DNA of 64,000 nt from a virus (IMGVR_UViG_3300029267_004155), one strand, 5' to 3'. Counted from the first letter of the stretch, positions 472-30,584 are shown. Notes: generated by a model not told the origin, from the letters alone. Made by a program: numbers and translations.

Positions 472-733
472 ATGGCTGGCAGGGCCATTAGGCTTTATCA
501 TGGCACGTCGGACAGGCAGGCGGCGAGGATCAAGTCCGGCGGGATCGGGAACGCCACGGGAAGTCCTCAGTGGTACATGTTCTCGACCGACAGGGATGCC
601 GAAGGCGGCCTACTACGACCTGGGCGGGATAGGCGACAACGTGATACGGTACGACATGGACAAGTTCCGGAGCAGGGTCACGAAGACCGGGCACTGGGGT
701 CCGTGGGACCTGAAGACCGAGAGCGGGCTATAG
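472..733 (+). pseudogene. ADP-ribosyltransferase-like protein, apparently frameshifted near 601
   Basis: LYHGTS...I..G...WYMFSTDRDA in one frame continues naturally as KAAYYDLGG... in the 359..733 frame if one G near 601 is removed. Confidence 0.45.
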
Positions 734-803
734 GAGGTTCGGGATGGCAAGGAACGTTTTCGACAGGCCGAGCAAGAAGCGGGTGAGGGTGCCTGGGGAG
801 GAC

Positions 804-1202
804 ATGGCGATGATGGAGGAGGCGTCCGTGGCCGGCGACCTGGTCCGGCTGGCCCGGGAGCTGACGGCGGTGACCCCGAGGTTCACGGTCAGGGTGGGGC
901 GCGGATCGGCGTCGGGCAACCGCCTGTTCGAGATGTTCGCCCCTCTCAGGACCGGCGAGTACGACAAGGCCGCGATCGGCAAGATGTTCGACGACGTCGA
1001 CAAGGAGGCGAAGAGGGTGGTGAAGGCGGTGGCCTCGAAGCTGGGCGCGTCGTTCAGCCGGCTGACGCCGGCGGCGATGAGGACGTACGTCGACCCTCAG
1101 GACTTCCTGGTCGGGGGCGTGATCGAGGGCGACGTCGGGGCCGAGGACGTGGCCGACGCGTTCCAGGGCGACTCGGCCGTCCGGCAGGCATGGGTGGAAT
1201 GA
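804..1202 (+). CDS. Hypothetical protein with leader variant (SVAGDLVRLARELTA)
   Basis: RBS GGGGAGG before ATG 804; leader motif at the N-terminus. An upstream ATG at 744 is an alternative start. Confidence 0.65.
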   Translation: MAMMEEASVAGDLVRLARELTAVTPRFTVRVGRGSASGNRLFEMFAPLRTGEYDKAAIGKMFDDVDKEAKRVVKAVASKLGASFSRLTPAAMRTYVDPQDFLVGGVIEGDVGAEDVADAFQGDSAVRQAWVE

Positions 1203-1216
1203 TTTCAGGCCGGAGG

Positions 1217-1246
1217 GTGGAAAGACCTGCTCGTTCGGCAATATGA
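1217..1246 (+). promoter_or_regulatory. Conserved 30-bp promoter motif, copy 2
   Basis: GTGGAAAGACCTGCTCGTTCGGCAATATGA, upstream of RBS AAGGAG and ATG 1267. Confidence 0.7.
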
Positions 1247-1266
1247 AGTGGGAGTCGTAAGGAGTC

Positions 1267-1578
1267 ATGACGATGGACAGGAAGAAGATTGCGACGGAGC
1301 TGGTCGAGGCGGCGAAGGACCTGGCCGGGGCTCCGAGGGGCCGCGAGGCGCGCGGGACGGACGTGTCGTTCTTCGTGAAGGTGGACGACGTGTTCACGTT
1401 CCCGTCGAGGGGCGTGGGGGCGGGCCAGGTCGAGGTCCTTCAGGACATGATCGAGGGCGCGATCTGGGGTCAGAGGGCGAAGCTCCTGGCGGCCGTGAAG
1501 GCCCAGCTGAAGAAGGACGTGGCCAGGGACGAGGACTTCCGCGAGTGGATGGAGATGCACAACGTCGAGGTGAAATGA
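1267..1578 (+). CDS. Leader-bearing hypothetical protein
   Basis: MDRKKIATELVEAAKDLAG N-terminus; RBS AAGGAG. Confidence 0.8.
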   Translation: MTMDRKKIATELVEAAKDLAGAPRGREARGTDVSFFVKVDDVFTFPSRGVGAGQVEVLQDMIEGAIWGQRAKLLAAVKAQLKKDVARDEDFREWMEMHNVEVK

Positions 1579-1940
1579 TGGACGGAACGAAGGTTGCGAA
1601 GGAGCTCGTCGAGGCCGCCAGGGAGCTGACCGGGGCGTCGCTGACCAAGGAGTGGAAGAGGATGCTCCCGGGTCAGGAGTTCAAGATTCGGTGGGACTTC
1701 CGCGGGCTCGGGGCGACGGAGGCCGGGGCCATGCGCGGGCATCTCGACGACATGGAGAGGGAGGTGGCCAGGGACGTGAAGGCCATAGAGAAGGTGGCGG
1801 CGGTCTCCAAGGCGCCGTCGCCGCGCGTGGTGGTCTATCCGGGCGGCGGCTCCATCGAGATCGGCGCGGTGACGTTCGCGACGCCGGACGCCGACGTCGA
1901 CTTCGTCCGGGTCCTGGAGAGGCTCGGGTTCAGGAGGTGA
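1575..1940 (+). CDS. Leader-bearing hypothetical protein
   Basis: ATGA overlap with the previous stop; MMDGTKVAKELVEAARELTG. Confidence 0.8.
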   Translation: MMDGTKVAKELVEAARELTGASLTKEWKRMLPGQEFKIRWDFRGLGATEAGAMRGHLDDMEREVARDVKAIEKVAAVSKAPSPRVVVYPGGGSIEIGAVTFATPDADVDFVRVLERLGFRR

Positions 1941-1942
1941 GC

Positions 1943-2236
1943 ATGGACGGCAGGGAGATTGCGAGCGAGTTGGTGACGGTCGCTCGCGACCTCGTGTCCG
2001 TCGACGGGCGCCTGTCCGACGCCGTGCGGAGAAGGAACCTGCTGGAGGACGGGAGGCTCGTGAACGGCGACGACCTGGACCGGCGGGCCGGCCAGTTCTC
2101 GGCGTCCGAGAGGCGCCGGAAGGAGAAGAGGCTGGAGAGGGTCGAGGCGCTGATGCAGAAGGCGTACGACAAGATAGACGGGTCCCCGGAGCTGATCGAG
2201 GCGTACGAGGAGCGTTCGGGCGTGGCGTGGGACTGA
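1943..2236 (+). CDS. Leader-bearing hypothetical protein
   Basis: RBS AGGAGG; MDGREIASELVTVARDLVS. Confidence 0.75.
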   Translation: MDGREIASELVTVARDLVSVDGRLSDAVRRRNLLEDGRLVNGDDLDRRAGQFSASERRRKEKRLERVEALMQKAYDKIDGSPELIEAYEERSGVAWD

Positions 2237-2281
2237 CGAGGAGGTCCGCGAGTGGATGGACGACAACGGCATCGAGGTCGA

Positions 2282-3580
2282 GTGAAGGCGGAGAGGTCAT
2301 TCTTGGGCGCGTCGAGGACATCGAGGCAGACGGAGGACTACCGGCGCGTGGAGGCGCTGGTGGGCGCGCTTCGCGACGCCTTCCGCCCCCTCGGTGGCTA
2401 CGGGAAGAAGGTGGAGGCCGGGATGGTGTCCAGGCTGGCGGCGGCCGCCGCCAGGCTGGGGGACGCCATCGACTTCAAGTTCGAGGACGAGAGCAAGGAG
2501 CGGCTCTTCGAGAAGGTGGTCAGGCGCAAGCTGGGCAACTTCGAGAAGCTGCTGGCCGGGCTGTCCGGGCTCCGGACGCCGGAGGACTGGGACGCCTTCC
2601 GGAAGAGGAACGGGAGCGGGTCGAAGTCGGTCTGGGAGAAGGTGTACGATTACTCGTCGATGCTTCTCCGGGCGATAAGCTCGCTGGACGTGGAGGTGGA
2701 GGGGCACTTCGACGTCGGCGGGTGGAGCGTGGTGCAGCTGACGTCGCCGAGGGGCGACTGGTCGCGGAGCCTCGGGAACGCGCTGGACTGGGAGCTGCGG
2801 GAGGCGACGAGGAGGGTGGCGGCGGCGGGTCTCGGGGCGGTGGCCGGCGGCCGGGTGCTGGCCTATCCTGCGAAGGTGCTGCCGGGCGTGTACGGCGGCG
2901 GGGCGCTGGCCTACTACCAGAAGTCGAAGGACCTCATGGCGGTGGCGGCGGCCGGGGACCCGAGGAGGGTGGTCCGGACGCTGGTCCACGAGATGGGGCA
3001 CCGGTACTACTACCGGGTGATGGCAGGGGCCGGCAGGTCGGCGTGGGGCGAGTTCTTCGGGGCCAACGTGGGGTTGGCGGACGTGGACTCGATCATCTCC
3101 GACTGGGAGAGGTGGGCCGAGGCGAACAGCGGGGACTACTGGGTCGGGAAGTACGGGAGGTTCCTGGGGACGTACGCGGGGCACCTGGCGAAGACCGACC
3201 CGGGGAGCCTGATGTGGCTGGAGATGGTGGCGAGGGCGATAGGGATCGACGAGCCTCAGAGCTTGTCCGGGTACAAGCGGGGGGCGGTTCCCGGGCTGGA
3301 CCAGCTGAAGGCGAGGAAGGGGGAGGCGAAGGTCTTCCTCCATCCGGTGACGGCATATTCGGGGACGAGCCCGGAGGAGCTGTTCGCGGAGACGTTCGCG
3401 AACGTGGTGACGATGGGGCCGGCGAGCGTGCCGGAGATCGTGAGGGAGGCTTTCAAGAAGGCGGTGCCGAGATTCAGGGGGGCCTCCGGGGGCGGCGCGT
3501 CGAAGGTGGACGGCAGGATGGCCGCGAGCGAGCTGCTGCTCGCCGCCAGGGAGCTGGTCGCGGCCGAGGAGTCGATTTGA
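2282..3580 (+). CDS. Zincin-type metallopeptidase domain protein with C-terminal leader copy
   Basis: TLVHEMGH (HExxH) plus downstream YSGTSPEELFAETF third-ligand motif; ends VDGRMAASELLLAARELVA. Start taken as GTG 2282. Confidence 0.7.
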   Translation: MKAERSFLGASRTSRQTEDYRRVEALVGALRDAFRPLGGYGKKVEAGMVSRLAAAAARLGDAIDFKFEDESKERLFEKVVRRKLGNFEKLLAGLSGLRTPEDWDAFRKRNGSGSKSVWEKVYDYSSMLLRAISSLDVEVEGHFDVGGWSVVQLTSPRGDWSRSLGNALDWELREATRRVAAAGLGAVAGGRVLAYPAKVLPGVYGGGALAYYQKSKDLMAVAAAGDPRRVVRTLVHEMGHRYYYRVMAGAGRSAWGEFFGANVGLADVDSIISDWERWAEANSGDYWVGKYGRFLGTYAGHLAKTDPGSLMWLEMVARAIGIDEPQSLSGYKRGAVPGLDQLKARKGEAKVFLHPVTAYSGTSPEELFAETFANVVTMGPASVPEIVREAFKKAVPRFRGASGGGASKVDGRMAASELLLAARELVAAEESI

Positions 3581-4689
3581 GCCATTATCAGTCAGACAGC
3601 AGGAGGGTCAGGTTCCCGGACCCGGCCGACCAGTGGGCCGACTGGCTGACCCGCGGGCGCTACACGAAGGTCACCTACGAGGCGGTCCCGATCGCGAAGG
3701 TGCGGCACGGCAAGTGGAGCGAGGACAGGTACGAGAGGGCGCTCGCGCACATGATGGCGGGCCGCAGGCTGGACCCGGTGAGCTTGGCGAAGGTCGGCGG
3801 CGCCTACGAGGTGGCGGACGGGAACCATCGCGTGGCGGCGTCGGCGGAGATGGGGTACACCCATGTCCCGGCGCTCGTCCACGAGGAGATGGCGGAGGCG
3901 CCCCCTGGCAGCCCCCCGCCGGGGACCCGGAGGAAGATGGTGGAGGAGGAGTTCGGGACCTTCCTGAACGTGCTGAGGCGCTTCGTGCCGGCGGGGCTGG
4001 AGGTGTCCTGGAAGAGCGTGTCGGAGAACGGCTACGTGGCCGACGTGTCGTTCTGGACCCCGTGGCTGGAGGAGAAGGACTATCAGCTCGAGGTGAGGAT
4101 TCTGGGCGACGGGAGGAGGGAGGCGACGTTCAAGCGTCCCGGCGGGTCGTTCAGGAGGAGGTTCGACGAGGGAGGCCCGGAGGCGTTCGCGAGGGCCTTC
4201 GGGAAGTGGCTCGGGGATTTCGTCGAGGATCATCCGGAGTTTGACGAGCATAGGAGAGAGGCGATGGACGGAAAGAAGATTGCGAGGGAGCTTGTCGAGG
4301 CTGCTCGGGAGCTGGCGGCCGACCAGTTCGACCATCCGAGGATGGAAGAGGCGCTGGACGTGCTGACGGACGCCTCTCCCGGGCTGCACGCGTGGCTGAG
4401 GAGAAACACGCGTCTGGGTCCGTATTGGGAGATGACCTACAAGAGCCGCGCGGGCATGAGCAGCAGTCTGGACGCGGGGCTCGGGGCCGTGCAGGACTTC
4501 TACGCGAAGGAGGAGCGCATGCGCGGCGGCGACTTCTGGAAGGTGAGGGTGTACGCCAACGTTGACGGCGAGGTTATCGTGAAGTCCTCCATGGCGGGCG
4601 ACCGGTACATGTTCAAGGACGTCAAGCTCAAGTGGGCCGACCTGAAGAACCCGGCCAAGGTGTTCAGCCGGTCGAGGCTGCCGCGATAG
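3577..4689 (+). CDS. ParB/Srx-like domain protein fused in frame to a second leader-bearing domain (internal ATG 4264)
   Basis: LDPVSL...YEVADGNHRVAA...G...VPALV is the ParB N-terminal signature. Start uncertain (TTG 3577, or a frameshift from the upstream leader). MDGKKIARELVEAARELAA at 4264 has its own RBS. Confidence 0.65.
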   Translation: MSHYQSDSRRVRFPDPADQWADWLTRGRYTKVTYEAVPIAKVRHGKWSEDRYERALAHMMAGRRLDPVSLAKVGGAYEVADGNHRVAASAEMGYTHVPALVHEEMAEAPPGSPPPGTRRKMVEEEFGTFLNVLRRFVPAGLEVSWKSVSENGYVADVSFWTPWLEEKDYQLEVRILGDGRREATFKRPGGSFRRRFDEGGPEAFARAFGKWLGDFVEDHPEFDEHRREAMDGKKIARELVEAARELAADQFDHPRMEEALDVLTDASPGLHAWLRRNTRLGPYWEMTYKSRAGMSSSLDAGLGAVQDFYAKEERMRGGDFWKVRVYANVDGEVIVKSSMAGDRYMFKDVKLKWADLKNPAKVFSRSRLPR

Positions 4690-4829
4690 TCGGCGTTCGC
4701 GAGGGCCTTCGGGAAGTGGCTCGGGGATTTCGTCGAGGATCATCCGGAGTTTGACAGGAGAGGGAGGGAGTCGATGGACGGAAAGATGGTCGCGAGGGAG
4801 CTTGTCGAGGCTGCCAGGGAGCTGGCGGC
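4182..4829 (+). repeat. ~138-bp direct repeat (4182-4319 and 4692-4829) spanning upstream gene tail, RBS and leader
   Basis: GGCGTTCGCGAGGGCCTTCGGGAAGTGGCTCGGGGATTTCGTCGAGGATCATCCGGAGTTTGAC...ATGGACGGAAAG...GAGCTGGCGGC present twice, offset 510 bp. Confidence 0.9.
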
Positions 4830-5073
4830 AAGCGATCAGTTGCGGGCATTGCGCCTGTTGAACGACATTGGCGATCATCGGCTCGACATTAAGGAGGTGC
4901 GCTCTGGCGTGTTTTCGGCGACGAACCGCAGGGATGGGGTGCCGTTGGAGCTTTCGCGCACGCGAGGACGTCCGAATTGGCACAGTGAGTTCTCGTTTTC
5001 CGAGCTGGAAGATTGGATGGGCGGTCGCATGACCAAAAAGCAGTACGACCGCTATTTGGAAGCGCTGAATTGA
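4774..5073 (+). CDS. Leader-bearing hypothetical protein
   Basis: MDGKMVARELVEAARELAA; sequence after the leader is visibly more AT-rich. Confidence 0.8.
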   Translation: MDGKMVARELVEAARELAASDQLRALRLLNDIGDHRLDIKEVRSGVFSATNRRDGVPLELSRTRGRPNWHSEFSFSELEDWMGGRMTKKQYDRYLEALN

Positions 5074-5241
5074 GGAGGCCATGATGGATAGGAGAGCCAG
5101 GGGCGGGTTCATGGGCATGAAGGGCGCGACCATCTCGTGTTCCGGGACGGGCGCCGGAGGGAGTGGAAGGTTGGCCGCGACGAGCTGAGCTTCAATCGGC
5201 GCTTCTGGCTTCCGAGGAAGATCATGAGCAAGGAGATCGAC

Positions 5242-5532
5242 ATGGATGGGACGAGGATCGCGAGAGAGCTTGTCGGGGCCGCGAGGGAGCTGACGGGCGC
5301 CGTCGGGATGGACCGCGGGATAAACCCCTCGAAGTTCTGGCTCGTGCTTCATCCGACCCCGGACTCGGAGATCGGGGACGTGGTGTGGGAGACGGACCTT
5401 CACGGCTTCGGGCTCTGGGCTCGGGGCGGTGGCCCGCGGTTTTGGCTTGGGGTGGCGGCGGTGAAGGGCGACAGGGGCTCGGCCATGAGGATGGGCCAGG
5501 AGTTGCTCGACGAGCGTGACGGCATAATGTGA
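5242..5532 (+). CDS. Leader-bearing hypothetical protein
   Basis: RBS AAGGAG; MDGTRIARELVGAARELTG. The ORF is open upstream to 5137. Confidence 0.75.
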   Translation: MDGTRIARELVGAARELTGAVGMDRGINPSKFWLVLHPTPDSEIGDVVWETDLHGFGLWARGGGPRFWLGVAAVKGDRGSAMRMGQELLDERDGIM

Positions 5533-5536
5533 GGAG

Positions 5537-6064
5537 ATGGACATGGCCAGGAGGCACATCGTAACCGACATGGGTTCCGCGACGGAGTTGAGGAGCGACT
5601 CCGGGGAGACGCTGTCGATTCCGCGCTACGGGGCCTGGTCCTCGTCGGGCCGGAAGCCGCAGGTGGTCGACACGTCCGACGACCTGGGGGCGCTTCTGAG
5701 GAAGTACGACCTGACCGAGGCTGACGTGGTCAAGATGAGGGGTGCCTCCGACGACGGCGACGTGGCAGGGAGGGTGGCTGCCGGCTTTATGCCGAGAGTG
5801 GCTGGCGAGTCCCTCATCGACCTCGTGATCGACAAGAGGACCTTCTACAAGCTGGAGAGCCAGGTCGACGAGCAGACCTGGGAGCTGGCTCGCGAGGTCT
5901 ACGTCGCCCTGATGAGGGCCCTGGAGCTGGACCGGTCGCAGCACGAGGCGCTGAGCCGTCTCCGGAACAGCGTGACGGGCAGCTACTCCGAGGCGATGCA
6001 CAGGAACAACATGTTCAAGGCGGCGCACGCTCTCGGGATCAAGCTCCCGAGCGCGTCGTTCTGA
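5537..6064 (+). CDS. Two-domain hypothetical protein with internal RVAxxF motif
   Basis: RBS GAGGAG; internal linker KMRGASDDGDVAGRVAAGFMPRVAG. Confidence 0.7.
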   Translation: MDMARRHIVTDMGSATELRSDSGETLSIPRYGAWSSSGRKPQVVDTSDDLGALLRKYDLTEADVVKMRGASDDGDVAGRVAAGFMPRVAGESLIDLVIDKRTFYKLESQVDEQTWELAREVYVALMRALELDRSQHEALSRLRNSVTGSYSEAMHRNNMFKAAHALGIKLPSASF

Positions 6065-6074
6065 GGAGGCCGGC

Positions 6075-6503
6075 ATGGACAGCAAGAAGATTGCGAGAGA
6101 GTTGATCGAGGCTGCGAGGGACCTGGCCGGGGCGGAGAGGCCGAACCCGCTGGACGGCCGCACGAAGCGGTCTGCGGCGAACTTCGTGAACAAGCTGTTG
6201 CGGAAGTATGGGCAGGCCGGCATCTTCCGTAACGAAACGAGCTGGCGTCCGTTGAAGATACTGTGGGACGAGCTGCGGGACGAGGGGATACCGTTCGACC
6301 TGAAGAGCGCCGAGTACGGCATCTCCCCGTCGGGGCGGCAGATGGGCCTGGGGATGCCGGACAATAAGACCTGGAAGTTCGAGATCGAGTTCCTGAACGA
6401 CCGTGGGAGGCCGACCAGGCTGTACGGAATCGTGATAGCGTCCGGGGCCGGCACGGTGGAGGACCCGATGGGGTCGTACGACTTGAACGCCTACGTGAGC
6501 TAA
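6075..6503 (+). CDS. Leader-bearing hypothetical protein
   Basis: RBS GAGGAGG; MDSKKIARELIEAARDLAG. Confidence 0.85.
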   Translation: MDSKKIARELIEAARDLAGAERPNPLDGRTKRSAANFVNKLLRKYGQAGIFRNETSWRPLKILWDELRDEGIPFDLKSAEYGISPSGRQMGLGMPDNKTWKFEIEFLNDRGRPTRLYGIVIASGAGTVEDPMGSYDLNAYVS

Positions 6504-6515
6504 AGGAGAGCCGAG

Positions 6516-6800
6516 ATGGACGAGAAGAGGATGGCCTGGAGGGTGGCGTCGAAGGTCATGGCCGCGCGCCGCCCCGAGATAACCGGGGACCCCCGCAGGG
6601 ACCAGGGGATATGGGAGGGGATCGAGGACGGGGTCTACGAGTTGATCCAGGAGGCTTTAGAGAACGGCTTCGGGAGCATCGACAAGAGCGGGGCCCGGAA
6701 GGTGATCCGGGACGTGGCCCGGGACCACGACGCCGACCAGAAGGCGGTGGAGCACTACTTCTGGGAGGAGTATCACAACACGGAATGGCCCGAGGACTGA
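6516..6800 (+). CDS. Acidic hypothetical protein with RVA-type leader
   Basis: RBS AAGGAG; MDEKRMAWRVASKVMA. Confidence 0.75.
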   Translation: MDEKRMAWRVASKVMAARRPEITGDPRRDQGIWEGIEDGVYELIQEALENGFGSIDKSGARKVIRDVARDHDADQKAVEHYFWEEYHNTEWPED

Positions 6801-6811
6801 GGAGGTTCGAG

Positions 6812-7375
6812 ATGGGTGGCGTGAAGAGATGGCTTGAGGACACGGTGTACGCGGTGGCGGAGGCTCTCGGGGCGGACGGCGACGACGGCGACGTCTTCGA
6901 CGCGATCCATGACTGGCTGGAGGAGGAGGGCCTCGGGCCGTCGACGCCGGTCGACCGGATCGTGGCGCGGGCGAGGCGAGAGCTCCGTGGCAGGTTGAGG
7001 GGCGCGTCCTCGCCGGCGCGGGTTGAGGAAGTCCCAGCAAGGAGGGACGACATGGATGGGACGAGGATCGCGAGCGAGCTGGTGGGGGCGGCCAGGGAGT
7101 TGACGGGCGCCCCCCTTTCCGCCGAGGACGAGATGATCGACCAGGTGGGGAGGAAGATGGGCGTCGCGATGAGCGCCCTCGGAAGCGCCAGGGAGAACAT
7201 TGCCAGGGCGCTCATGTCGGCGACGTCGATCCGGACGATGGAGAAGAGGCTGGGCGTCGCGAACCCGAGGGAGCGCGCCAGGATCGAGGCTCTCGCGAAG
7301 AAGCTGGTGGTGGCGTCGGAGATGGCCGACGAGGCGCGGGAGCTGGCGGCCAGGGTGATGCAGGACTGGACATGA
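6812..7375 (+). CDS. Hypothetical protein with internal leader at 7052
   Basis: RBS GGAGG before 6812; second RBS and in-frame MDGTRIASELVGAARELTG at 7052. Confidence 0.7.
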   Translation: MGGVKRWLEDTVYAVAEALGADGDDGDVFDAIHDWLEEEGLGPSTPVDRIVARARRELRGRLRGASSPARVEEVPARRDDMDGTRIASELVGAARELTGAPLSAEDEMIDQVGRKMGVAMSALGSARENIARALMSATSIRTMEKRLGVANPRERARIEALAKKLVVASEMADEARELAARVMQDWT

Positions 7376-9150
7376 ACATGAGGCTGGCCGACGTGGAGGA
7401 CGTTCTGGAGCGGATCGAGCGCACGGTCTGGGACGACGCGCTTGCCGAGGCCATGCGGGACCGGGTCGAGGACCTGTCCCTGTCCGACAGCGGGAAGGTC
7501 TACGGCCCGGTCGAGTTCGGCGAGCCTCGGCAGATGTCGAGGAAGCGGAGGCTGGACATCGGGTGGACGGACCACGCCGAGTACCGGAGCGAGCTTCGGG
7601 ACGTGGACCCGGGAAAGGTGAACGACTCGGTGACGAAGGTGATGCGGGACCGGCTCCGGAAGCAGAGGACGCGGGGCAAGGAGAAACTGAAGGTTCCCGG
7701 AGGCACGGCGGTGGTGGACTACGACCTGAGGGGCAAGCCGGCCGACGCGGACGTGGTGACGGTCTGGGCTTCCGAGTCGGGCAGGCGGGCCGGATGGCGC
7801 GACGTCGCCCGCGAGGTGCCCGGATGGGCGCTCGACTGGATGAGGCGGGCCAGGCGGAGGTTCTCGGACGAGGTCCTCCGGGTGTCCGTCGCCATTGCCT
7901 TCGGGGGGGTTGAGACCACTGGCGCAACGATAGAGAAGGTCTCCAGGAGGATGGGCGTGGAGCTTGGCGCCGACGAGATCGTCCACGTCCTCCACGCCGT
8001 GGAGGAGGTCGTAGAGATGGCGCACGGGCTAAGCGCCTCGGACGAGCGGCCGGACGGGGTTGCGAGAGAGCCGCTGCGGCTGGCCAGGGAGGCGCTGGGG
8101 TCGGAGCTGGGGAGTAGGGGGGTGATCAACGGCACCGACGAGGGCGAGTGGTGGCTCGGGGAGCCTCGCGGCGACTGGTGGCTCCTGTATGGGATGGAGT
8201 CGTCCAGGCATCCCGAGCGCGGCTCGGTGGCGGGGGCGACCGAGCGGCATCCGGGTTTCCTGAAGGCGCTGGGCGGCATCGTGAGGAGGCATCCCGAGGC
8301 CTCCTCCTGGGAGCTCGCCTTCGACGGCCCCTTCGTCCCGGTGGCGGAGCTGCTTGGCCGGGGCTCGGGCCCGGGCGTGAGATGGGCGTCGGTCGTGTTC
8401 TACCACGGCACGTCGGAGAGGGCGTGGGAGCAGATACGCCGCCAGGGCCTCAGGCCGCGTTCCGGGACCAACGTCGAGCCCGCGTACGGGATCGGGGTCG
8501 GGGCAGAGCCGGGACGCGTCGACGCGGTGTACCTGACGACCCAGACCGGCATGGCGCGCTGGGCGGCCAGGGACGCGGCGAGGATGACGGGAGGCGCCCC
8601 GGTGGTTCTGCGGGTGAGGGGGATCGACGGGGACAAGGCGCGGGCGGACGGGGACAGCGGGGAGGCGACCGCCGAGGCGAGCCTGGGCCGCATGGGGTCG
8701 ATCGCGTACGTCGGGGACGTCCCGGCGTCGAAGGTGGAGCTCCACGAGGTCCTGCGGGACCGCAGATGGAGGAAGGAGGCGGGTCGTCGCGGCCACGTCC
8801 TCCGGATTGCCCCGGGTGGCGGAAATGACAGCAAGGAGGAGAGCGAGATGGATGGGACGAAGATCGCGAGAGAGCTGGTCGGGGCGGCGAGGGAGTTGAC
8901 GGCCAGGGGCGAGATGGTGGAGCGGGACTACCTTCCGAGGGAGGCGCTTCCGTATCTCGACGAGCGGGACGAGGCCTACCAGTTCACCGAGAGAGGCAGG
9001 CTGAGCATGTACGCGGACGGCAGGAAGACGGTGGTGGTCTTCTTCAAGATGGAGTTCATGGCCGTCTTCGAGTATGGCGGCGCCGGCGTGACCAGGATGC
9101 TGAAGGCGGACCCGGTCGTGATGGCGGACTATTTCAGGACGGTTCTCTAA
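7372..9150 (+). CDS. Polyprotein: RelE/DUF4258-like domain, unknown domains, ADP-ribosyltransferase-like domain, leader-bearing domain (8848)
   Basis: IGWTDHAEYRSELRDV; VFYHGTS...IRRQGLRP...AVYLTT...A..AA...PVVLRV; internal MDGTKIARELVGAARELTA with RBS. Confidence 0.65.
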   Translation: MNMRLADVEDVLERIERTVWDDALAEAMRDRVEDLSLSDSGKVYGPVEFGEPRQMSRKRRLDIGWTDHAEYRSELRDVDPGKVNDSVTKVMRDRLRKQRTRGKEKLKVPGGTAVVDYDLRGKPADADVVTVWASESGRRAGWRDVAREVPGWALDWMRRARRRFSDEVLRVSVAIAFGGVETTGATIEKVSRRMGVELGADEIVHVLHAVEEVVEMAHGLSASDERPDGVAREPLRLAREALGSELGSRGVINGTDEGEWWLGEPRGDWWLLYGMESSRHPERGSVAGATERHPGFLKALGGIVRRHPEASSWELAFDGPFVPVAELLGRGSGPGVRWASVVFYHGTSERAWEQIRRQGLRPRSGTNVEPAYGIGVGAEPGRVDAVYLTTQTGMARWAARDAARMTGGAPVVLRVRGIDGDKARADGDSGEATAEASLGRMGSIAYVGDVPASKVELHEVLRDRRWRKEAGRRGHVLRIAPGGGNDSKEESEMDGTKIARELVGAARELTARGEMVERDYLPREALPYLDERDEAYQFTERGRLSMYADGRKTVVVFFKMEFMAVFEYGGAGVTRMLKADPVVMADYFRTVL

Positions 9151-9161
9151 GGAGGTTCGAC

Positions 9162-9467
9162 ATGGACGAGAGAACGATGATCGACAGGGTTGCCGGGGCC
9201 TTCCGGGCCGAGGTCGTGGAGATGGAGGAGGAGGAGCCTCAGGGCTCGACCCCTGTCAAGGAGAGGCGCAAGGAGGCTGGTCGCACGGCCGATCAGGAGT
9301 ACAAGGAGAGGCGCAGAGAGGTGGACCGGCTCATGGCGAGCGTCCACAAGAAGCTGAGGAGCCACGGCATGGACCAGGAGAGGGCCCCGGATGACTGGGG
9401 CTATGCCGGCGACATGGGCCGCGTCCTGGGGCTGCTGGTCGAGATCGACGGGTTCCTGGGCGGTTGA
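9162..9467 (+). CDS. Hypothetical protein with RVA-type leader
   Basis: RBS AAGGAGG; MDERTMIDRVAGAFRA. Confidence 0.75.
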   Translation: MDERTMIDRVAGAFRAEVVEMEEEEPQGSTPVKERRKEAGRTADQEYKERRREVDRLMASVHKKLRSHGMDQERAPDDWGYAGDMGRVLGLLVEIDGFLGG

Positions 9468-9478
9468 GGGAGACTGAC

Positions 9479-9832
9479 ATGGACAGGACATCGACGAGCG
9501 CCCCGAGGGACCCGTGCCCGGATTGCGTGAGGAAGCACCTCGGCCAGGCGTGCGTCCTGTGCCAGGAGGCGCTCCAGGGATATCCGGACCATCGCTGGCT
9601 GGCGATAGGGCACCTGGCCGAGGCGGAGGCCGAGATCGAGGGAATGTCGCCGGCCCTGGCCGAGCGGTTCCGGGAGGAGCGGAAGGCGCTGGAGGCCGAT
9701 CCTGCCCATCAGCCTCCCTTCGTGGAGCTGATAGCCTCGGTGACGGGCCTGGACGGCGTGACGGCCTGCGACTGCGGAGGCTCGATGGAGGATCGCGTGG
9801 CGGCGGCGTTCATGGGGAGGGCCGGGACGTGA
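9479..9832 (+). CDS. Cys/His-containing hypothetical protein with C-terminal RVA motif
   Basis: CPDCVRKH...GHLAEA; ends SMEDRVAAAFMGRAGT. Confidence 0.7.
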   Translation: MDRTSTSAPRDPCPDCVRKHLGQACVLCQEALQGYPDHRWLAIGHLAEAEAEIEGMSPALAERFREERKALEADPAHQPPFVELIASVTGLDGVTACDCGGSMEDRVAAAFMGRAGT

Positions 9833-10416
9833 GTGTCGATCCCAGGATGGCGTCGAGGCTGTCGTCGAGGTTGTCGGGGAGGTATGGCGGCCCTTTGTTC
9901 CGGGCTGTCGATTCGAGGGATGGCTCGGCGGCCCTCGGCGAGGGAACGTATTTCACCGACAGCCGCGAGGCTGCCATGGCCTATGGCGACGACGTTCGGG
10001 AGTTCGTGGCCAGGGGTTTGATGGTCCTTGGCACGAACAGCGGCGAGTACGAGATGGTCAGGAGGCGCGCCGACGGGGTTCGGGCCCGGCATCCGTCCGA
10101 GGCCGTGGCGAAGGTGGCCAGGATGGAGGGCTATGACGGGATATACTCGGGTCCCGTCTTCGGGCTGGTGGTGTTCGGATCGGGCATGTCGAAAGTGCGG
10201 GAGGTTCGGACGGCGGGACTGGCCGAGATGGCGGGAGGCATGGACGGGACGAAGATCGCGATAGAGCTGTTGCGGGTGGCTCGTGGGGTCGTTGGCGCCC
10301 CGGTCGACCTGGACGAGAGCAAGAGGTGTTTCCACGGGACGCCGCTGGAGAAGGCTGGACTTAGACATGACGCGCGGCGACGCGTTCGAGGGCCAGGTCG
10401 GCGTGACGGCCTGTGA
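9829..10416 (+). CDS. ADP-ribosyltransferase-like domain followed by an internal leader (10240) and a truncated FHGT remnant
   Basis: LFRA...LGEGTYFTDSREAAMAYG...GYDGIY...LVVF resembles phage ART domains; then MDGTKIAIELLRVARGVVG. Confidence 0.55.
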   Translation: MSVDPRMASRLSSRLSGRYGGPLFRAVDSRDGSAALGEGTYFTDSREAAMAYGDDVREFVARGLMVLGTNSGEYEMVRRRADGVRARHPSEAVAKVARMEGYDGIYSGPVFGLVVFGSGMSKVREVRTAGLAEMAGGMDGTKIAIELLRVARGVVGAPVDLDESKRCFHGTPLEKAGLRHDARRRVRGPGRRDGL

Positions 10417-10484
10417 TTGTGAAGGCGCCTTGGAGGACCGCGTGGCGTCGTCATTCATGGGCAGGTTCAAATAGGGAGAAGGTC

Positions 10485-10826
10485 ATGGACGGTGAGAAGA
10501 TCGCGAGAGAGCTGATCGAGGCCGCGAGGGAGCTGACGGGGGCGAACGTCGGCCATCATCACAGGCAGGGGTCCGACTGGTACGTCGACTCCAATTTCAT
10601 CAACATCGTCCAGCACGTCTATCCGGGCGGCACCCTGGAGCACATGGGCTTCGGGGAGTTCTACATGGATACGCCGGATGGGAGGCTGGACTTCGACAGG
10701 ATGCACGGCAAGGCGTTCGAGGGCCAGGTCGGAAGGCCGCACCTGCTCCAGGACGACTCTGGCGGCAAGGTGGTAAAGAAGGCCATCAGCCTGATGGAGC
10801 GGGCTGGGAAGTCCGAGGAGGTCTGA
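10485..10826 (+). CDS. Leader-bearing hypothetical protein
   Basis: MDGEKIARELIEAARELTG; RBS GGGAG. Confidence 0.8.
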   Translation: MDGEKIARELIEAARELTGANVGHHHRQGSDWYVDSNFINIVQHVYPGGTLEHMGFGEFYMDTPDGRLDFDRMHGKAFEGQVGRPHLLQDDSGGKVVKKAISLMERAGKSEEV

Positions 10827-10827
10827 C

Positions 10828-11517
10828 GTGGACAGGGACAGGATAGCCAGGAGGGTCGAGGCCGCGGGCGTGGCCTCGGCGGTAGCCAGGGCGAAGGCCG
10901 CGGCGGTCATGGCGATAGCCAGGGCGGTCTCGACCTCCCCGGCCGTCCGGAAGGCCGTGCAGGGGATCGCCACCGACGTTGAGGCGACCGCCGGGCCCGG
11001 CGACGACGGCAGAAGGGCCATCCTCGGGTCGTCTGGGATGGGCGCGGCCCGCGACGCCGTGGCCGACGCCGTGGCCGAAGGCGTCGTCGACGCGGCGCAG
11101 AAGGCGGTCGGCAAGTCTCCGGGGAGACACCGGAGGATGGCGAAGGCCTTCGTCATGAAGGCGCTGCCGATGATCCCGTTCGGCTTCATAGACAACTTCA
11201 TCATGATCCTGGCGGGCAACGCCATCGAGGCGTCCCTGGCCAGCACGCTGGGCCTGAGCGCCATGGCGGCCGCGGGGCTGGGCAACGCGGCCTCCGACGC
11301 CGTCGGGGCCATGAGCCAGGACCGCGTCGACTCCGTTCTCGGGCGGATGGGGCTCGGGGGCCAGCTGGAGGGCGGCAGGGCGGAGGCGCTGGCCGGCTTG
11401 GCCGGCGGGGCCTTCGGGGTCGCCGTGGGCGCCCTGGCCGGAATGTTCCCGCTGCTGCTGTCGGGCTCCGTCGAGGGCTCCATGGCGGAGGACGTGGCCG
11501 ACCGCTTCCTGGGCTGA
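10828..11517 (+). CDS. TMEM65-family-like membrane protein with RVA-type ends
   Basis: PMIPFGFIDNFIMILAGNAIEASLASTLGLSAMAAAGLGNAASDAVG matches the TMEM65 core pattern FGFxDNxIMIxAG...STMAAAALGNxxSD. Confidence 0.7.
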   Translation: MDRDRIARRVEAAGVASAVARAKAAAVMAIARAVSTSPAVRKAVQGIATDVEATAGPGDDGRRAILGSSGMGAARDAVADAVAEGVVDAAQKAVGKSPGRHRRMAKAFVMKALPMIPFGFIDNFIMILAGNAIEASLASTLGLSAMAAAGLGNAASDAVGAMSQDRVDSVLGRMGLGGQLEGGRAEALAGLAGGAFGVAVGALAGMFPLLLSGSVEGSMAEDVADRFLG

Positions 11518-11591
11518 GCCGAAATCGGTGCCGCCTCTCCTTCCCGTTCGCGGGGGGCAGCTTCGTGGCGTATAGTTGAGGGGAGGTGACC

Positions 11592-12569
11592 ATGTACTGT
11601 CTTCGCCCGTTCTACATGATGATAGTGGAGCCGGGCGGCGAGTGCCGCTCGTGCTGCGAGGCCCACGCCTCCAAGTCGTTCGGGAACATCCTCCGCGACG
11701 GCCCCGAGGGGGTCTGGAGGGGGGAGGGCGCCCGGGAGATGCGGGAGTCGATCCTGGACGGGTCCTACCGGTTCTGCCTGGACGGTTGCCCGATCTACCA
11801 GAGGGTGCTGGCTCTTCGCGAGAGCGGCGGCGACCCGCGGACGGGGACCATGGACCTGGGGGCCTGCGTCTCGCGGGAGCCGATGGGCAGGGACCTGGAG
11901 TGGCCGGCCCATCTGCACGTCGGGCACGACACCCGCTGCAACATCCGCTGCCGGAAGTGCCACCACTGGACCATCGAGGTCGACGAGGCCGAGACGGACA
12001 GGGTGGGCGACCTCTGCCTGGGGATGCTGCCGCACGCCAGCGGACTTGCGATGAGCGGGTGCGGGGAGCTGTTCTTCAGCCCGTCCTACGCCAAGGTGCT
12101 CAGGGGCGTCGAGGCGATGCCGAACCTCTTCAAGATGCACGCCATCACCAACGGGACCCTGCTCACGCCGGGGAGGTGGGGGTCGCTGGGGGATGTCGCG
12201 AGCAAGATCGCGAGGGGCTCGCTCAGGGTCTCGGTCGACGCGGCGACGAGGGAGACCTACGACAAGGTCCGGCGCGGTGGCGACTTCGACGTCCTGGCGG
12301 CCAACCTGCGCTTCCTGGGGTCGAGGCCGATCAGCCAGAAGCTGATGTCGATGGTGGTGGAGATGGACAACTTCCGGGAGATGCCGGCGTTCGTGAGGCT
12401 GGCGGCCGAGTGGGGCTTCCGGGCGGTCTTCGAGCAGGTGATCGGGCCCGACGGGTGGAAGCCGTGGATCGACGACGCGCCGGAGAGGGAGGAGTTCGAG
12501 GCGCTGCTGGCCGAGTCGCTGGCCATGGCCAACCTCCTGTGGACCAACTTCCAGGGGGCGGGCAGATGA
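11592..12569 (+). CDS. Radical SAM protein with N-terminal SPASM/twitch-like domain
   Basis: CNIRCRKC (CxxxCxxC), GELF, ITNGTLL, VSVDAAT.ETY..VR.GG.F; N-terminal CxxPF...CC...GN...W...C...C. Confidence 0.8.
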   Translation: MYCLRPFYMMIVEPGGECRSCCEAHASKSFGNILRDGPEGVWRGEGAREMRESILDGSYRFCLDGCPIYQRVLALRESGGDPRTGTMDLGACVSREPMGRDLEWPAHLHVGHDTRCNIRCRKCHHWTIEVDEAETDRVGDLCLGMLPHASGLAMSGCGELFFSPSYAKVLRGVEAMPNLFKMHAITNGTLLTPGRWGSLGDVASKIARGSLRVSVDAATRETYDKVRRGGDFDVLAANLRFLGSRPISQKLMSMVVEMDNFREMPAFVRLAAEWGFRAVFEQVIGPDGWKPWIDDAPEREEFEALLAESLAMANLLWTNFQGAGR

Positions 12570-15741: not shown

Positions 15742-16394
15742 TGCCGTACAATCCGAATCGTCCGCCGAGGAAGCTGAGCGACTATCCGAAGAAGTTGCAG
15801 AGGCAATGGGTCCATGTCTTCAATTCATGTATGGGTCGTGGCGGCGACGAGGGGAAGTGCCACGCGATGGCGTATTCGGTGGTGAACAGGGAGATGGGCA
15901 AGTCGGGCTCCGACAGGTCGGGGCGCTACCGGGAGGTGGAGCCGCCGGCCATGGGCGCGTTCGACGACGAGATAGACGGCATCGAGACGGCGGTGGTGGA
16001 GTCTCTGAAGGATCAGGGTGGCGTGGACATGGGAAAGGAAGCGTGTATAATGAGGTGGAACAGGCAGATGGTCGCCCGGGAGCTCCTTGTCGTGGCAAGG
16101 GAGCTTTCCGGCGCGAGCTTTCAGGAAGAGGCGAAGGCGTTGAGGATGAAGGGCTATGTCCAGGACTTCTCGAAGGCGGTCGGAAAGTTCCGGCACGACG
16201 CCAACGAGTTCGTCGACAGGATGACGGCGGCGGTTGAGAATCCGTCGGCTCTCCGGGAGTTCCCGTTCCTGCGGGCGGTGCTGGGAGAGCTGAGGGAGCA
16301 GAAGCGCGGCCTCTTGCCGATGACGTTCCTGGACGACCGCGACCTCATGTCGATGCTGGAGCGCGTGGTGTGCAAAGATTCGGGGAGCTGCTGA
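15741..16394 (+). CDS. ChaB-like N-terminal domain plus leader-bearing C-terminal domain
   Basis: MPY...P..LQRQWVHVFNS...EGKCHAMAYSVV matches the ChaB pattern; QMVARELLVVARELSG near 16065. Confidence 0.6.
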   Translation: MPYNPNRPPRKLSDYPKKLQRQWVHVFNSCMGRGGDEGKCHAMAYSVVNREMGKSGSDRSGRYREVEPPAMGAFDDEIDGIETAVVESLKDQGGVDMGKEACIMRWNRQMVARELLVVARELSGASFQEEAKALRMKGYVQDFSKAVGKFRHDANEFVDRMTAAVENPSALREFPFLRAVLGELREQKRGLLPMTFLDDRDLMSMLERVVCKDSGSC

Positions 16395-30034: not shown

Positions 30035-30584
30035 GCTGGCGGACCTGGAGCCGTCGGCCTACAACCCCAGGAAGATCGACGGAGGCGCCATGAGGGCGCT
30101 CTCGGCGTCCCTCCGGAGGTTCGGCTACGTCGAGCCCATCGTCTGGAACGAGAGGACCGGCAGGATCGTCGGCGGCCACCAGAGGCACTCCCTGCTGATG
30201 GACCAGGGCGTCGAGGAGGCGCCGGTCGTGGTGGTCGACTTCTCCGACGAGGAGGAGGTCGCGGCCAACCTGACTCTCAACAACCCCGAGATCGAGGGCG
30301 AGTGGGACGATCCGATCCTGGACCTCATCTCCAGGCTGGAGGACTCCCGGCCGGAGCTGTTCGGCGAGCTGGACTTCGGCGGCCTTCGGGACGCCGTGGA
30401 GGCCATGGCGCCGAAGACCGGCGAGGAGAGCTACGAGGGCAAGAACCGGGAGGTCGACGTGGACGACCTGACGTCCGACTGCGACGTGAAGTGCCCGTGC
30501 TGCTCGTTCGAGTGGGAGATCGACGCGAAGGACGTCGAGGCCGTGGTCGAGCCGCAGGCCGAGGAGGAAGAGGATGACGAGTAG
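29970..30584 (+). CDS. ParB-like N-terminal domain protein, paralog
   Basis: LEPSAYNPRKI...SLRRFGYVEPIVWNERTGRIVGGHQR; C-terminal KCPCCSFEW. Confidence 0.8.
   Translation: MPSKSRKSKTESRSRWEIRRARLADLEPSAYNPRKIDGGAMRALSASLRRFGYVEPIVWNERTGRIVGGHQRHSLLMDQGVEEAPVVVVDFSDEEEVAANLTLNNPEIEGEWDDPILDLISRLEDSRPELFGELDFGGLRDAVEAMAPKTGEESYEGKNREVDVDDLTSDCDVKCPCCSFEWEIDAKDVEAVVEPQAEEEEDDE

Follow-up and report, generated by a model that had tools for sequence, protein, structure and literature searches.

The DNA considered here, a 64,000-nucleotide stretch of the viral record IMGVR_UViG_3300029267_004155 (hereafter the 64-kb window), carries between positions 472 and 11,517 an array of mostly small genes whose largely dissimilar proteins have in common a 19-residue peptide, called the tag below. 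The window has a G+C content of 62-70% and a strong G-over-C skew, and all of its convincing genes lie on the + strand. A preliminary description had listed 15 copies of the tag and had considered it a transferable signal that loads diverse proteins (cargos) into the capsid or another compartment. A profile scan of the kind it suggested recovered the tag both in the window and in other phage contigs.

A profile made from the tag copies matched the window, translated in six frames, 12 times at 30-47 bits (starts at 1273, 1578, 1943, 3506, 4264, 4774, 5242, 6075, 7052, 8848, 10240, and 10485), all on the + strand and in the coding frame indicated by a plot of G+C at third codon positions (GC3 plot). 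The copy near 16065 (profile match at 16068) was moderate, with 19.7 bits, and that near 810 (match at 840) was weak, with 6.9 bits. The protein encoded at 744-1202, which contains the latter, is orthologous to canonically tagged proteins in three other contigs (L011, L021, and L001), where the canonical tags precede the same '..GRFK/..RF' cargo start, and the weak copy is thus real by descent. The list of 15 thus holds except for the degenerate copy at 8053, which scored -3 bits and is unsupported, and nothing comparable to the tag was found by profile in the remaining 47 kb (17-64 kb). A degenerate DNA pattern encoding A-x-E-L-h-x-[AV]-A-R-[ED]-L gave 11 matches, compared to 0 in 100 dinucleotide-preserving shuffles. 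The consensus of the window copies is M-D-G-[TK]-K-I-A-R-E-L-V-[EG]-A-A-R-E-L-[TA]-G-A.

Placement was assigned from the GC3 frame plot together with inspection of starts, stops, and ribosome-binding sites, which bore out the earlier statement that the tag occurs at N-termini, internally, and at one C-terminus. Seven tags are N-terminal and follow a Shine-Dalgarno sequence (1273, 1578, 1943, 4774, 5242, 6075, and 10485), five are internal and in frame with upstream coding sequence (4264, 7052, 8848, 10240, and ~16065), most of them retaining their own Shine-Dalgarno sequence and ATG, and one is C-terminal (3506), beginning with V and without a Shine-Dalgarno sequence. The tag-bearing genes and the repeat that links two of them are as follows:

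744..1202, + strand: gene with a decayed tag (AGDLVRLARELTAV, ~831-872), 6.9 bits
1267..1578, + strand: small gene, N-terminal tag at 1273-1332, 44 bits, Shine-Dalgarno sequence AAGGAG
1575..1940, + strand: small gene, N-terminal tag at 1578-1637, 45.5 bits
1943..2236, + strand: small gene, N-terminal tag at 1943-2002, 39.7 bits, Shine-Dalgarno sequence AGGAGG
2252..3580, + strand: 442-residue zincin-like protein with HEMGH, C-terminal tag at 3506-3565, 30 bits
3577..4689, + strand: 370-residue fusion of a ParB-like part, an internal tag at 4264-4323, and a 120-residue cargo, 43 bits
4182..4319, + strand: direct repeat D7, copy 1 (138 nt, 91% identity), comprising an upstream coding tail, Shine-Dalgarno sequence, and tag
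4692..4829, + strand: direct repeat D7, copy 2, with the same tail (noncoding, behind a stop), Shine-Dalgarno sequence, and tag, followed by a different cargo
4774..5073, + strand: small gene, N-terminal tag at 4774-4833, 41.9 bits
5242..5532, + strand: small gene, N-terminal tag at 5242-5301, 45.8 bits
6075..6503, + strand: small gene, N-terminal tag at 6075-6134, 43.5 bits
6812..7375, + strand: 187-residue gene, internal tag at 7052-7111 with its own Shine-Dalgarno sequence and ATG, 47 bits
7372..9150, + strand: 592-residue protein, internal tag at 8848-8907 with Shine-Dalgarno sequence and ATG, then an 80-residue cargo, 42 bits
9829..10416, + strand: 195-residue gene, internal tag at 10240-10299, 40 bits
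10485..10826, + strand: small gene, N-terminal tag at 10485-10544, 47 bits
15741..16394, + strand: 217-residue ChaB-like open reading frame (ORF), tag-like segment MVARELLVVARELSGA at ~16065-16115, 19.7 bits

Across its copies, the tag appears as a 19-residue module, M-[DN]-x-x-[KR]-[IV]-A-x-E-L-[VL]-x-[VIL/A]-A-[RK]-[ED]-L-[TV]-[AG], and is modelled as one amphipathic helix made up of two 'h-A-x-E-L' heptads, with a variable-length linker between it and the cargo. Its DNA is only 60-85% identical among window copies. Even invariant residues are written with 2-4 synonymous codons each (CTG, CTC, CTT, or TTG for L10; GCG, GCC, or GCT for A14; AGG, CGC, CGG, or CGT for R15; CTG, CTC, or TTG for L17; and likewise for D2), and pairwise differences amount to 518 at third codon positions versus 288 and 308 at the other two. 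Because of this synonymous variation and the third-position excess, selection must act on the peptide and not on the DNA; genomes spanning 47-66% GC likewise retain the tag. The hydrophobic moment is 1.3-1.8. On a helical wheel, the invariant residues I6, A7, E9, L10, V11, V13, A14, E16, and L17 span ~220 degrees (~60% of the circumference), with the variable positions 4, 5, 8, 12, and 18 on the remaining face. Such an invariant face exceeds the need of an amphipathic helix, suggesting that the helix may be buried in a groove or bundle. The charged residues R8, E9, E12, R15, and E16 lie inside the helix, and since a charge recurs every 3-4 positions, a Sec, Tat, or lipoprotein signal can be excluded, as the preliminary description had stated; neither an uninterrupted hydrophobic core nor a twin-arginine motif or lipobox is present in the tag sequence.

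Apart from this peptide, the proteins that carry it are unrelated. Clustering of 206 tag-stripped cargo segments (38-393 residues, median 91) by BLASTP yielded 153 clusters, 127 of which are singletons. Among the window cargos, the sole similarity is a 17-residue patch common to the 10240 and 10485 genes, so that the earlier claim of no mutual similarity was nearly right. AlphaFold models of two cargos with orthologs, those of the 10485 and 6075 genes, differ in topology (one is mainly beta with two helices, and the other has three helices and then a four-stranded sheet). In both, the tag forms a helix of low predicted local distance difference test (pLDDT) score (residues 3-17/18, pLDDT 56-69); coil comes next, and the domain after it scores above 90. 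In the 10485 model, the helix covers residues 3-17 (pLDDT 60-69, domain above 90), and in the 6075 model it covers residues 3-18, with coil at 19-30 and then an alpha+beta domain. Among members of the 10485 family, the distance from tag to domain differs by up to ~10 residues. Foldseek searches with both models returned no PDB match at E<=0.001; weak leads were KA1-like and NTF2/KSI-like (the latter for the 6075 domain), and the ESM Atlas gave a WDGH-domain lead at 0.76. The isoelectric points of the cargos are bimodal with a median of 8.4, giving no clear sign of basic DNA-binding internal proteins.

Payload-like domains among the tagged proteins are ParB-like, Tpt1/ADP-ribosyltransferase-like, and zincin-like. 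The 370-residue fusion matches a PHROG ParB-like nuclease family (residues 58-101, E=1.9e-5), lies in a single coding frame that the GC3 plot extends over 3601-5071, keeps a Shine-Dalgarno sequence and ATG at its tag (4264-4323), and has only one homolog. The 592-residue protein contains a Tpt1/ADP-ribosyltransferase-like stretch (FYHGTS) with a weak PF01885 match (E=0.0044), and a second ADP-ribosyltransferase-like stretch precedes the 10240 tag. The zincin-like protein at 2252..3580 has weak Peptidase_Mx/Mx1 matches, and the ChaB-like assignment of the part ahead of the ~16065 tag is also weak. PDB sequence searches with the 370- and 592-residue proteins gave nothing meaningful. The 7052 tag is preceded by an 80-residue N-terminal part, with the coding frame running from 6841 in the GC3 plot, and the gene at 6812..7375 corresponds to P0001 as called in a public collection.

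The portability of the tag can be seen directly in several observations. The untagged gene at 5537-6064 is 53% identical over its C-terminal 88 residues to a canonically tagged 105-residue gene of L011, and the cargo of the 6075 gene is conserved in five other phage contigs, with the tag of its orthologs being canonical, shortened, decayed, or absent. The similarity between the two copies of the 138-nt repeat D7 ends at ARELAA, exactly where the tag ends; unitigs of two independent runs break at D7, and its 64-nt core (4182-4245) has double depth. This duplication is a fresh scar of the tag being grafted onto a new gene, which demonstrates that new genes gain the tag by duplication or recombination ending at the tag. 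Taken together, protein-level selection, the 153 clusters, two folds, tagged and untagged orthologs, and the D7 scar uphold the earlier view of a transferable tag and not a paralog family.

The distribution of the tag was analyzed by a profile search of 5.8 billion proteins and an exhaustive HMMER search of 1.84 billion representative proteins with a 30-column profile. The former revealed other tagged cargos and tag-keeping orthologs of the 10485 gene (P0009, P0010, and P0012), whose cargo family is conserved elsewhere along with the tag; the latter gave 319 representative proteins (clusters) at E<=1e-3. The best 150 of these 319 are mostly 60-250 residues long and match from residue 1. In the 167 tag copies that they contain, L10 occurs 167 times, E9 166 times (never Asp), A7 and A14 164 times each, L17 160 times, and M1 146 times, with strong preferences for [IV]6, V11, [RK]15, [ED]16, and [AG]19. 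The boundary is sharp, as information drops from >3 bits to <1 bit per position past residue 19. The external consensus, M[ND]xx[KR][IV]AxELVxVARELTA, is covered by no model of Pfam, PHROGs, or NCBIfam in scans of 48 external and 10 window proteins, and typical tag strings are absent from the papers of the literature searched.

As a DNA pattern, the commonest form of the tag was present in 16 contigs from JGI metagenomes and 3 from IMG/VR, and in 0 of 185,579 prokaryotic species genomes; with a looser pattern, further IMG/VR records were detected, among them a 329-kb genome that is complete and has terminal repeats. Neither a DNA pattern specific to the window nor a query with the 10485 protein gave a match in IMG/VR, and tblastn of the 10485 protein, P0133, and a consensus-like tag found none in 50,697 GenBank phage records, a search in which a 19-residue query has low sensitivity. 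No contig with a copy has just one: two adjacent tagged genes lie on a 190-kb contig (L001, 52.5% G+C) with 15 copies in the surrounding 20 kb, L012 has 15 copies in 6 kb, G001/L010 has 22-26 in 18 kb, and L023, G008, and L011 have 13, 14, and 9 copies, respectively. Some huge-phage genomes have a few scattered copies, and rarer placements are between two fused cassettes or at the C-terminus. Huge uncultured phages encode 10-25 unrelated, small, N-terminally tagged proteins per genome in dense arrays.

Both the wording and the position of the tag show regularities. The window flavour (D2-G3, E/G12-A13, and G19) differs from that of other arrays (N2-R3-Q4, A12-V13, and A19), and mean tag identity is 0.63 within the window versus 0.48-0.52 to other genomes. 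Even the 10485 tag has higher identity to its window neighbours (0.69) than to the tags on orthologs of the 10485 gene (0.55-0.60). Since codons differ between the copies, this flavour is unlikely to stem from recent gene conversion. The simplest reading is that the tags of one phage are co-adapted to one genome-specific partner; the invariant helix face and the genome flavour would imply a single, phage-specified partner for all tags. Regarding position, in the best 150 of the 319 proteins, 123 copies begin at residues 1-5 with a median of 40 bits, while 26 internal copies with M reach 29 bits and 18 without M reach 19 bits, suggesting that the tag may work at the N-terminus and decay once genes have fused; an exception is the C-terminal copy at 3506, which is well kept.

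What this partner may be is best approached from known systems. That short targeting peptides can be placed on diverse cargo is a known principle (T4, microcompartments, and encapsulins); the sequence family of the tag resembles none of these peptides, and its scale, with 10-25 tagged genes per genome and >300 clusters, is unusual. The best guess, which should be read as tentative and somewhat short of an even chance, is that the tag loads proteins into the phage head. Its partner would then be the prohead core or scaffold, and tagged proteins would be enclosed in the head and leave it together with the DNA at ejection, acting as host-takeover or anti-defence effectors like the T4 internal proteins and Alt. 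A Glu-specific prohead protease would cut the [IV]-A-x-E|L units, and the same cut would separate fused cassettes. Fusions, of which five are in frame here and which occur as [tag-cargo]n polyproteins elsewhere, would be tolerated because the tag is proposed to be both address and cleavage site.

Among known systems, that of T4 is closest. The internal proteins of T4 are diverse, and their only common feature is a 10-residue capsid targeting sequence (PMC3012670, PMC9026906), MKTYQEFIAE (PMC8442874); these ten N-terminal residues are enough for targeting, and the final Glu is needed for processing, which Asp blocks (PMC3012670, PMC9026906). The tag is likewise a short N-terminal peptide that is the only common part of unrelated, fast-evolving small proteins, ends its units in h-A-(x)-Glu, and is found at hypervariable loci. 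T4 payloads, too, comprise anti-defence and ADP-ribosyltransferase-type enzymes, and T4 propeptides can occupy either end (PMC3012670, PMC9026906); Alt, an ADP-ribosyltransferase, enters the T4 head, is ejected, and is processed at both termini (PMC9026906). However, the tag has no alignable similarity to the T4 sequence beyond '..IA.E', and it has 19 residues in two heptads whereas the T4 sequence has 10. Tagged genes number 10-25 per genome here versus 3-5 in T4, internal copies here have ribosome-binding sites of their own, and six tag-bearing IMG/VR records yielded no gp21-type protease; tag cleavage and packaging are predictions.

A further parallel is offered by the N-terminal propeptides on head and ejection proteins in giant phages of the phiKZ/SPN3US type; those of SPN3US are also short. 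The SPN3US prohead protease gp245 cuts after A-X-E, with V or A at P4 and V preferred, and removes propeptides of 20 and 24 residues (PMC10052503). The two tag units, [IV]6-A7-x-E9|L10 and [VIL]13-A14-[RK]15-[ED]16|L17, fit this motif (PMC10052503). One sequence common to many cargos is not reported there, however, and P1' is Ser-biased in SPN3US but Leu in the tag.

A number of findings weigh against loading into the head. The arrays lie amid genes for ribonucleotide reductase, glycosyltransferases, topoisomerase IB, RecQ, and Ro60-like proteins, not head genes. In the six tag-bearing IMG/VR records (G001 and G004-G008), neither gp21-type (PF03420) nor HK97-type (PF04586) prohead proteases were found, models that divergent giant-phage proteases may escape, and the phage-G-type capsid profile PF25209 had no match in these records, including the complete 329-kb genome. 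In that genome, the tag is present only on ORFs of 83 and 217 residues and on no recognisable head protein. Because roughly one copy in four has Asp or Leu in place of E16, only the first half-site is strictly kept. The A-X-E fit could also arise incidentally in any amphipathic helix rich in Ala, Glu, and Leu. The payload assignments are weak (E of 1e-5 to 4e-3), with no PDB sequence matches. Portability is well supported, and capsid loading is a putative role for which T4 provides the best analogy. Phrased more generally, the tag may be a peptide 'postcode', an ARELV-type helix (perhaps together with the R-V N-termini described below) that directs dozens of rapidly evolving proteins in each genome to a single destination built by the phage, either the head interior or another compartment; this is possible but clearly less than an even chance.

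The alternative that survives best, although it is unlikely, is that the tag is a docking helix for a partner other than the prohead, such as an intracellular compartment or condensate made by the phage, a hub protein on which mixed complexes assemble, or a phage chaperonin for fast-evolving small proteins. All evidence for portability and a common partner would apply equally, and the location of arrays in non-structural genome regions agrees with it, as does the report that T4 propeptides recruit GroEL (PMC10052503). The encapsulation peptides of bacterial microcompartments (BMCs) are similar in design, being shell-binding helices of ~18 residues with a poorly conserved linker, located at either terminus of diverse cargo (PMC4594438, PMC12339742), and the modelled tag helix (residues 3-17/18), followed by coil and a variable linker, has the same features. 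On the other hand, these peptides belong to a bacterial organelle and not a virus, and their sequences are far less conserved. No candidate compartment or hub gene was identified, and BMC-H/P shell genes did not turn up among the scanned window ORFs, although no search aimed at such genes was made; the strict Glu9 and the decay of internal copies somewhat better fit a processed N-terminal propeptide. An adaptor could be represented by an 83-residue ORF in the complete 329-kb genome (L063, G004:C1:197256-197504), which has a tag at each end and ~40 residues between them, and which could equally be a tag-only remnant.

It is improbable that the tag governs turnover or timing as an N-terminal signal, read by a ClpXP- or Lon-type protease adaptor of host or phage so that early proteins are cleared together. 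In favour of this, nearly all high-scoring canonical copies begin at residue 1, internal ones decay, and the arrays lie amid early or accessory-type genes. However, a signal confined to N-termini is at odds with the internal copies and with the C-terminal one at 3506, which is well kept (30 bits), the genome-specific flavours favour a phage-encoded over a conserved host partner, and known N-terminal degrons are shorter and less helical than the tag.

It is very improbable that there is no tag function at all and that the genes form a hyper-divergent paralog family whose N-terminal helix is the slowest-evolving part. Cargo sizes do cluster at ~90 residues, the genes are in tandem, and some neighbours have common short tails (repeats D11, D18, and D19). 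Nevertheless, conservation stops abruptly at residue 19, the cargos include 127 singletons of 38-393 residues, the two that were modelled differ in topology, the same cargo is found with and without the tag, and the tag follows unrelated enzyme domains and ends one protein. Tandem genes with a conserved front, a hypervariable rear, and recombination scars at the junction are also a feature of polymorphic toxin and orphan cassette arrays (PMC3482391). Unlike them, the present array has no large trafficking domain in Pfam, PHROGs, and NCBIfam scans and no evident toxin-immunity pairing, and its junction is not mainly a recombination site because the DNA homology of the tag is too low.

Least probable of all, and highly improbable, is a DNA-level recombination module (a cassette-shuffling linker, of the kind known from orphan arrays of polymorphic toxins) or a leader of ribosomally synthesised and post-translationally modified peptides (RiPPs) for the neighbouring radical S-adenosylmethionine (SAM)/SPASM enzyme. 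In favour of these readings, D7 ends at the tag and a SPASM-domain gene (11586-12569) follows the array, but tag DNA diverges within the genome mainly at third positions, the peptide persists at very different GC contents, the cargos are folded domains of up to 393 residues and not short core peptides, and no radical-SAM neighbour appears in the array gene lists of L001, L011, L012, L019, L020, and L025. The RiPP leader was rejected, as two cargos fold with pLDDT >90 and the tag is also internal and C-terminal.

If the tag is a loading signal, its 19-residue profile would be a search key for ejected or sorted proteins of huge uncultured phages, and it already retrieves >300 protein clusters, almost all of which are unannotated. 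The tagged proteins would be prime candidates for anti-defence and host takeover, like T4 IPI* and Alt, and the tag would be a ready handle for putting foreign proteins in large capsids. It would also represent a natural case of phages adding new genes to an existing delivery route, since the duplication scar in the window shows the grafting step. Under the postcode reading, the tag would define the injected or compartmentalised effector repertoire of an uncultured phage group from sequence alone. Should the destination be something other than the capsid, the occurrence of one portable, strictly conserved helix across hundreds of unrelated proteins still implies a common receptor.

Some additional features of the array and of tagged proteins are worth recording. 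Starts of the form M/V-D-x-[KR]-x-[MI]-[AI]-x-R-V are found at 6516-6800 (MDEKRMAWRVA), 9162-9467 (MDERTMIDRVA), and 10828-11517 (VDRDRIARRVE). The 6516 protein aligns over its full length, N-terminus included, with the canonically tagged L001:7382-7672, and therefore these 'R-V' N-termini may be a derived second flavour of the tag (E9->R and L10->V). At 9745-9820 and 10390-10465, neighbouring genes have a common tail (..GVTACDC.G..EDRVA..FMGR) with 82% DNA identity, and 5537-6064 contains a related 'GRVAAGFM', a second short shared motif. Downstream of the 10240 tag, the cargo (10240-10474) shifts frame near 10330 in the GC3 plot and continues to 10474, with a sequence identical in independent runs; its tail is pieced together from parts of the next gene (10683-10732) and of the tail of 9464-9832 (repeats D11 and D18), and this cargo is therefore a chimeric remnant. 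At the other end of the array, 472-733 has an ADP-ribosyltransferase/Tpt1-like start (LYHGTS) whose reading frame shifts near 600, which is a real frameshift or broken gene and not an assembly error because it is identical in contigs of independent runs. The region's best sigma70-like promoter match (16024-16051; TGGACA, 16-nt spacer, and TATAAT; 11/12) is located within the ChaB-like ORF, shortly before the tag-like start, which hints at separate downstream expression. In other phages, the commonest cargo after the tag is [DE]-F-P-T-Q-[DE]-A-x-D-K-Y-L-K-x-H-P-D-A-D-[KR]-S-x-H-x-V followed by a Lys-rich part (P0016, P0018, P0021, P0031, P0064, and L069); it has no family model, and single proteins often contain it in repeated form, as [tag-motif]n.

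The array ends at 10828-11517 with a membrane protein of the TMEM65 family (PF10507, E=1.6e-23), a family best known from mitochondria. Elsewhere, the window encodes ribonucleotide reductase, many glycosyltransferases, cysteine desulfurase, and two matrixin-like peptidases, as well as a C5 cytosine DNA methylase at 30574-32811 that is split by an intein with Hint, intein splicing, and LAGLIDADG domains. Window proteins are also encoded on public contigs, which reach 298,395 nt in length, and sediment and seawater metagenomes of several studies contain near-identical DNA.

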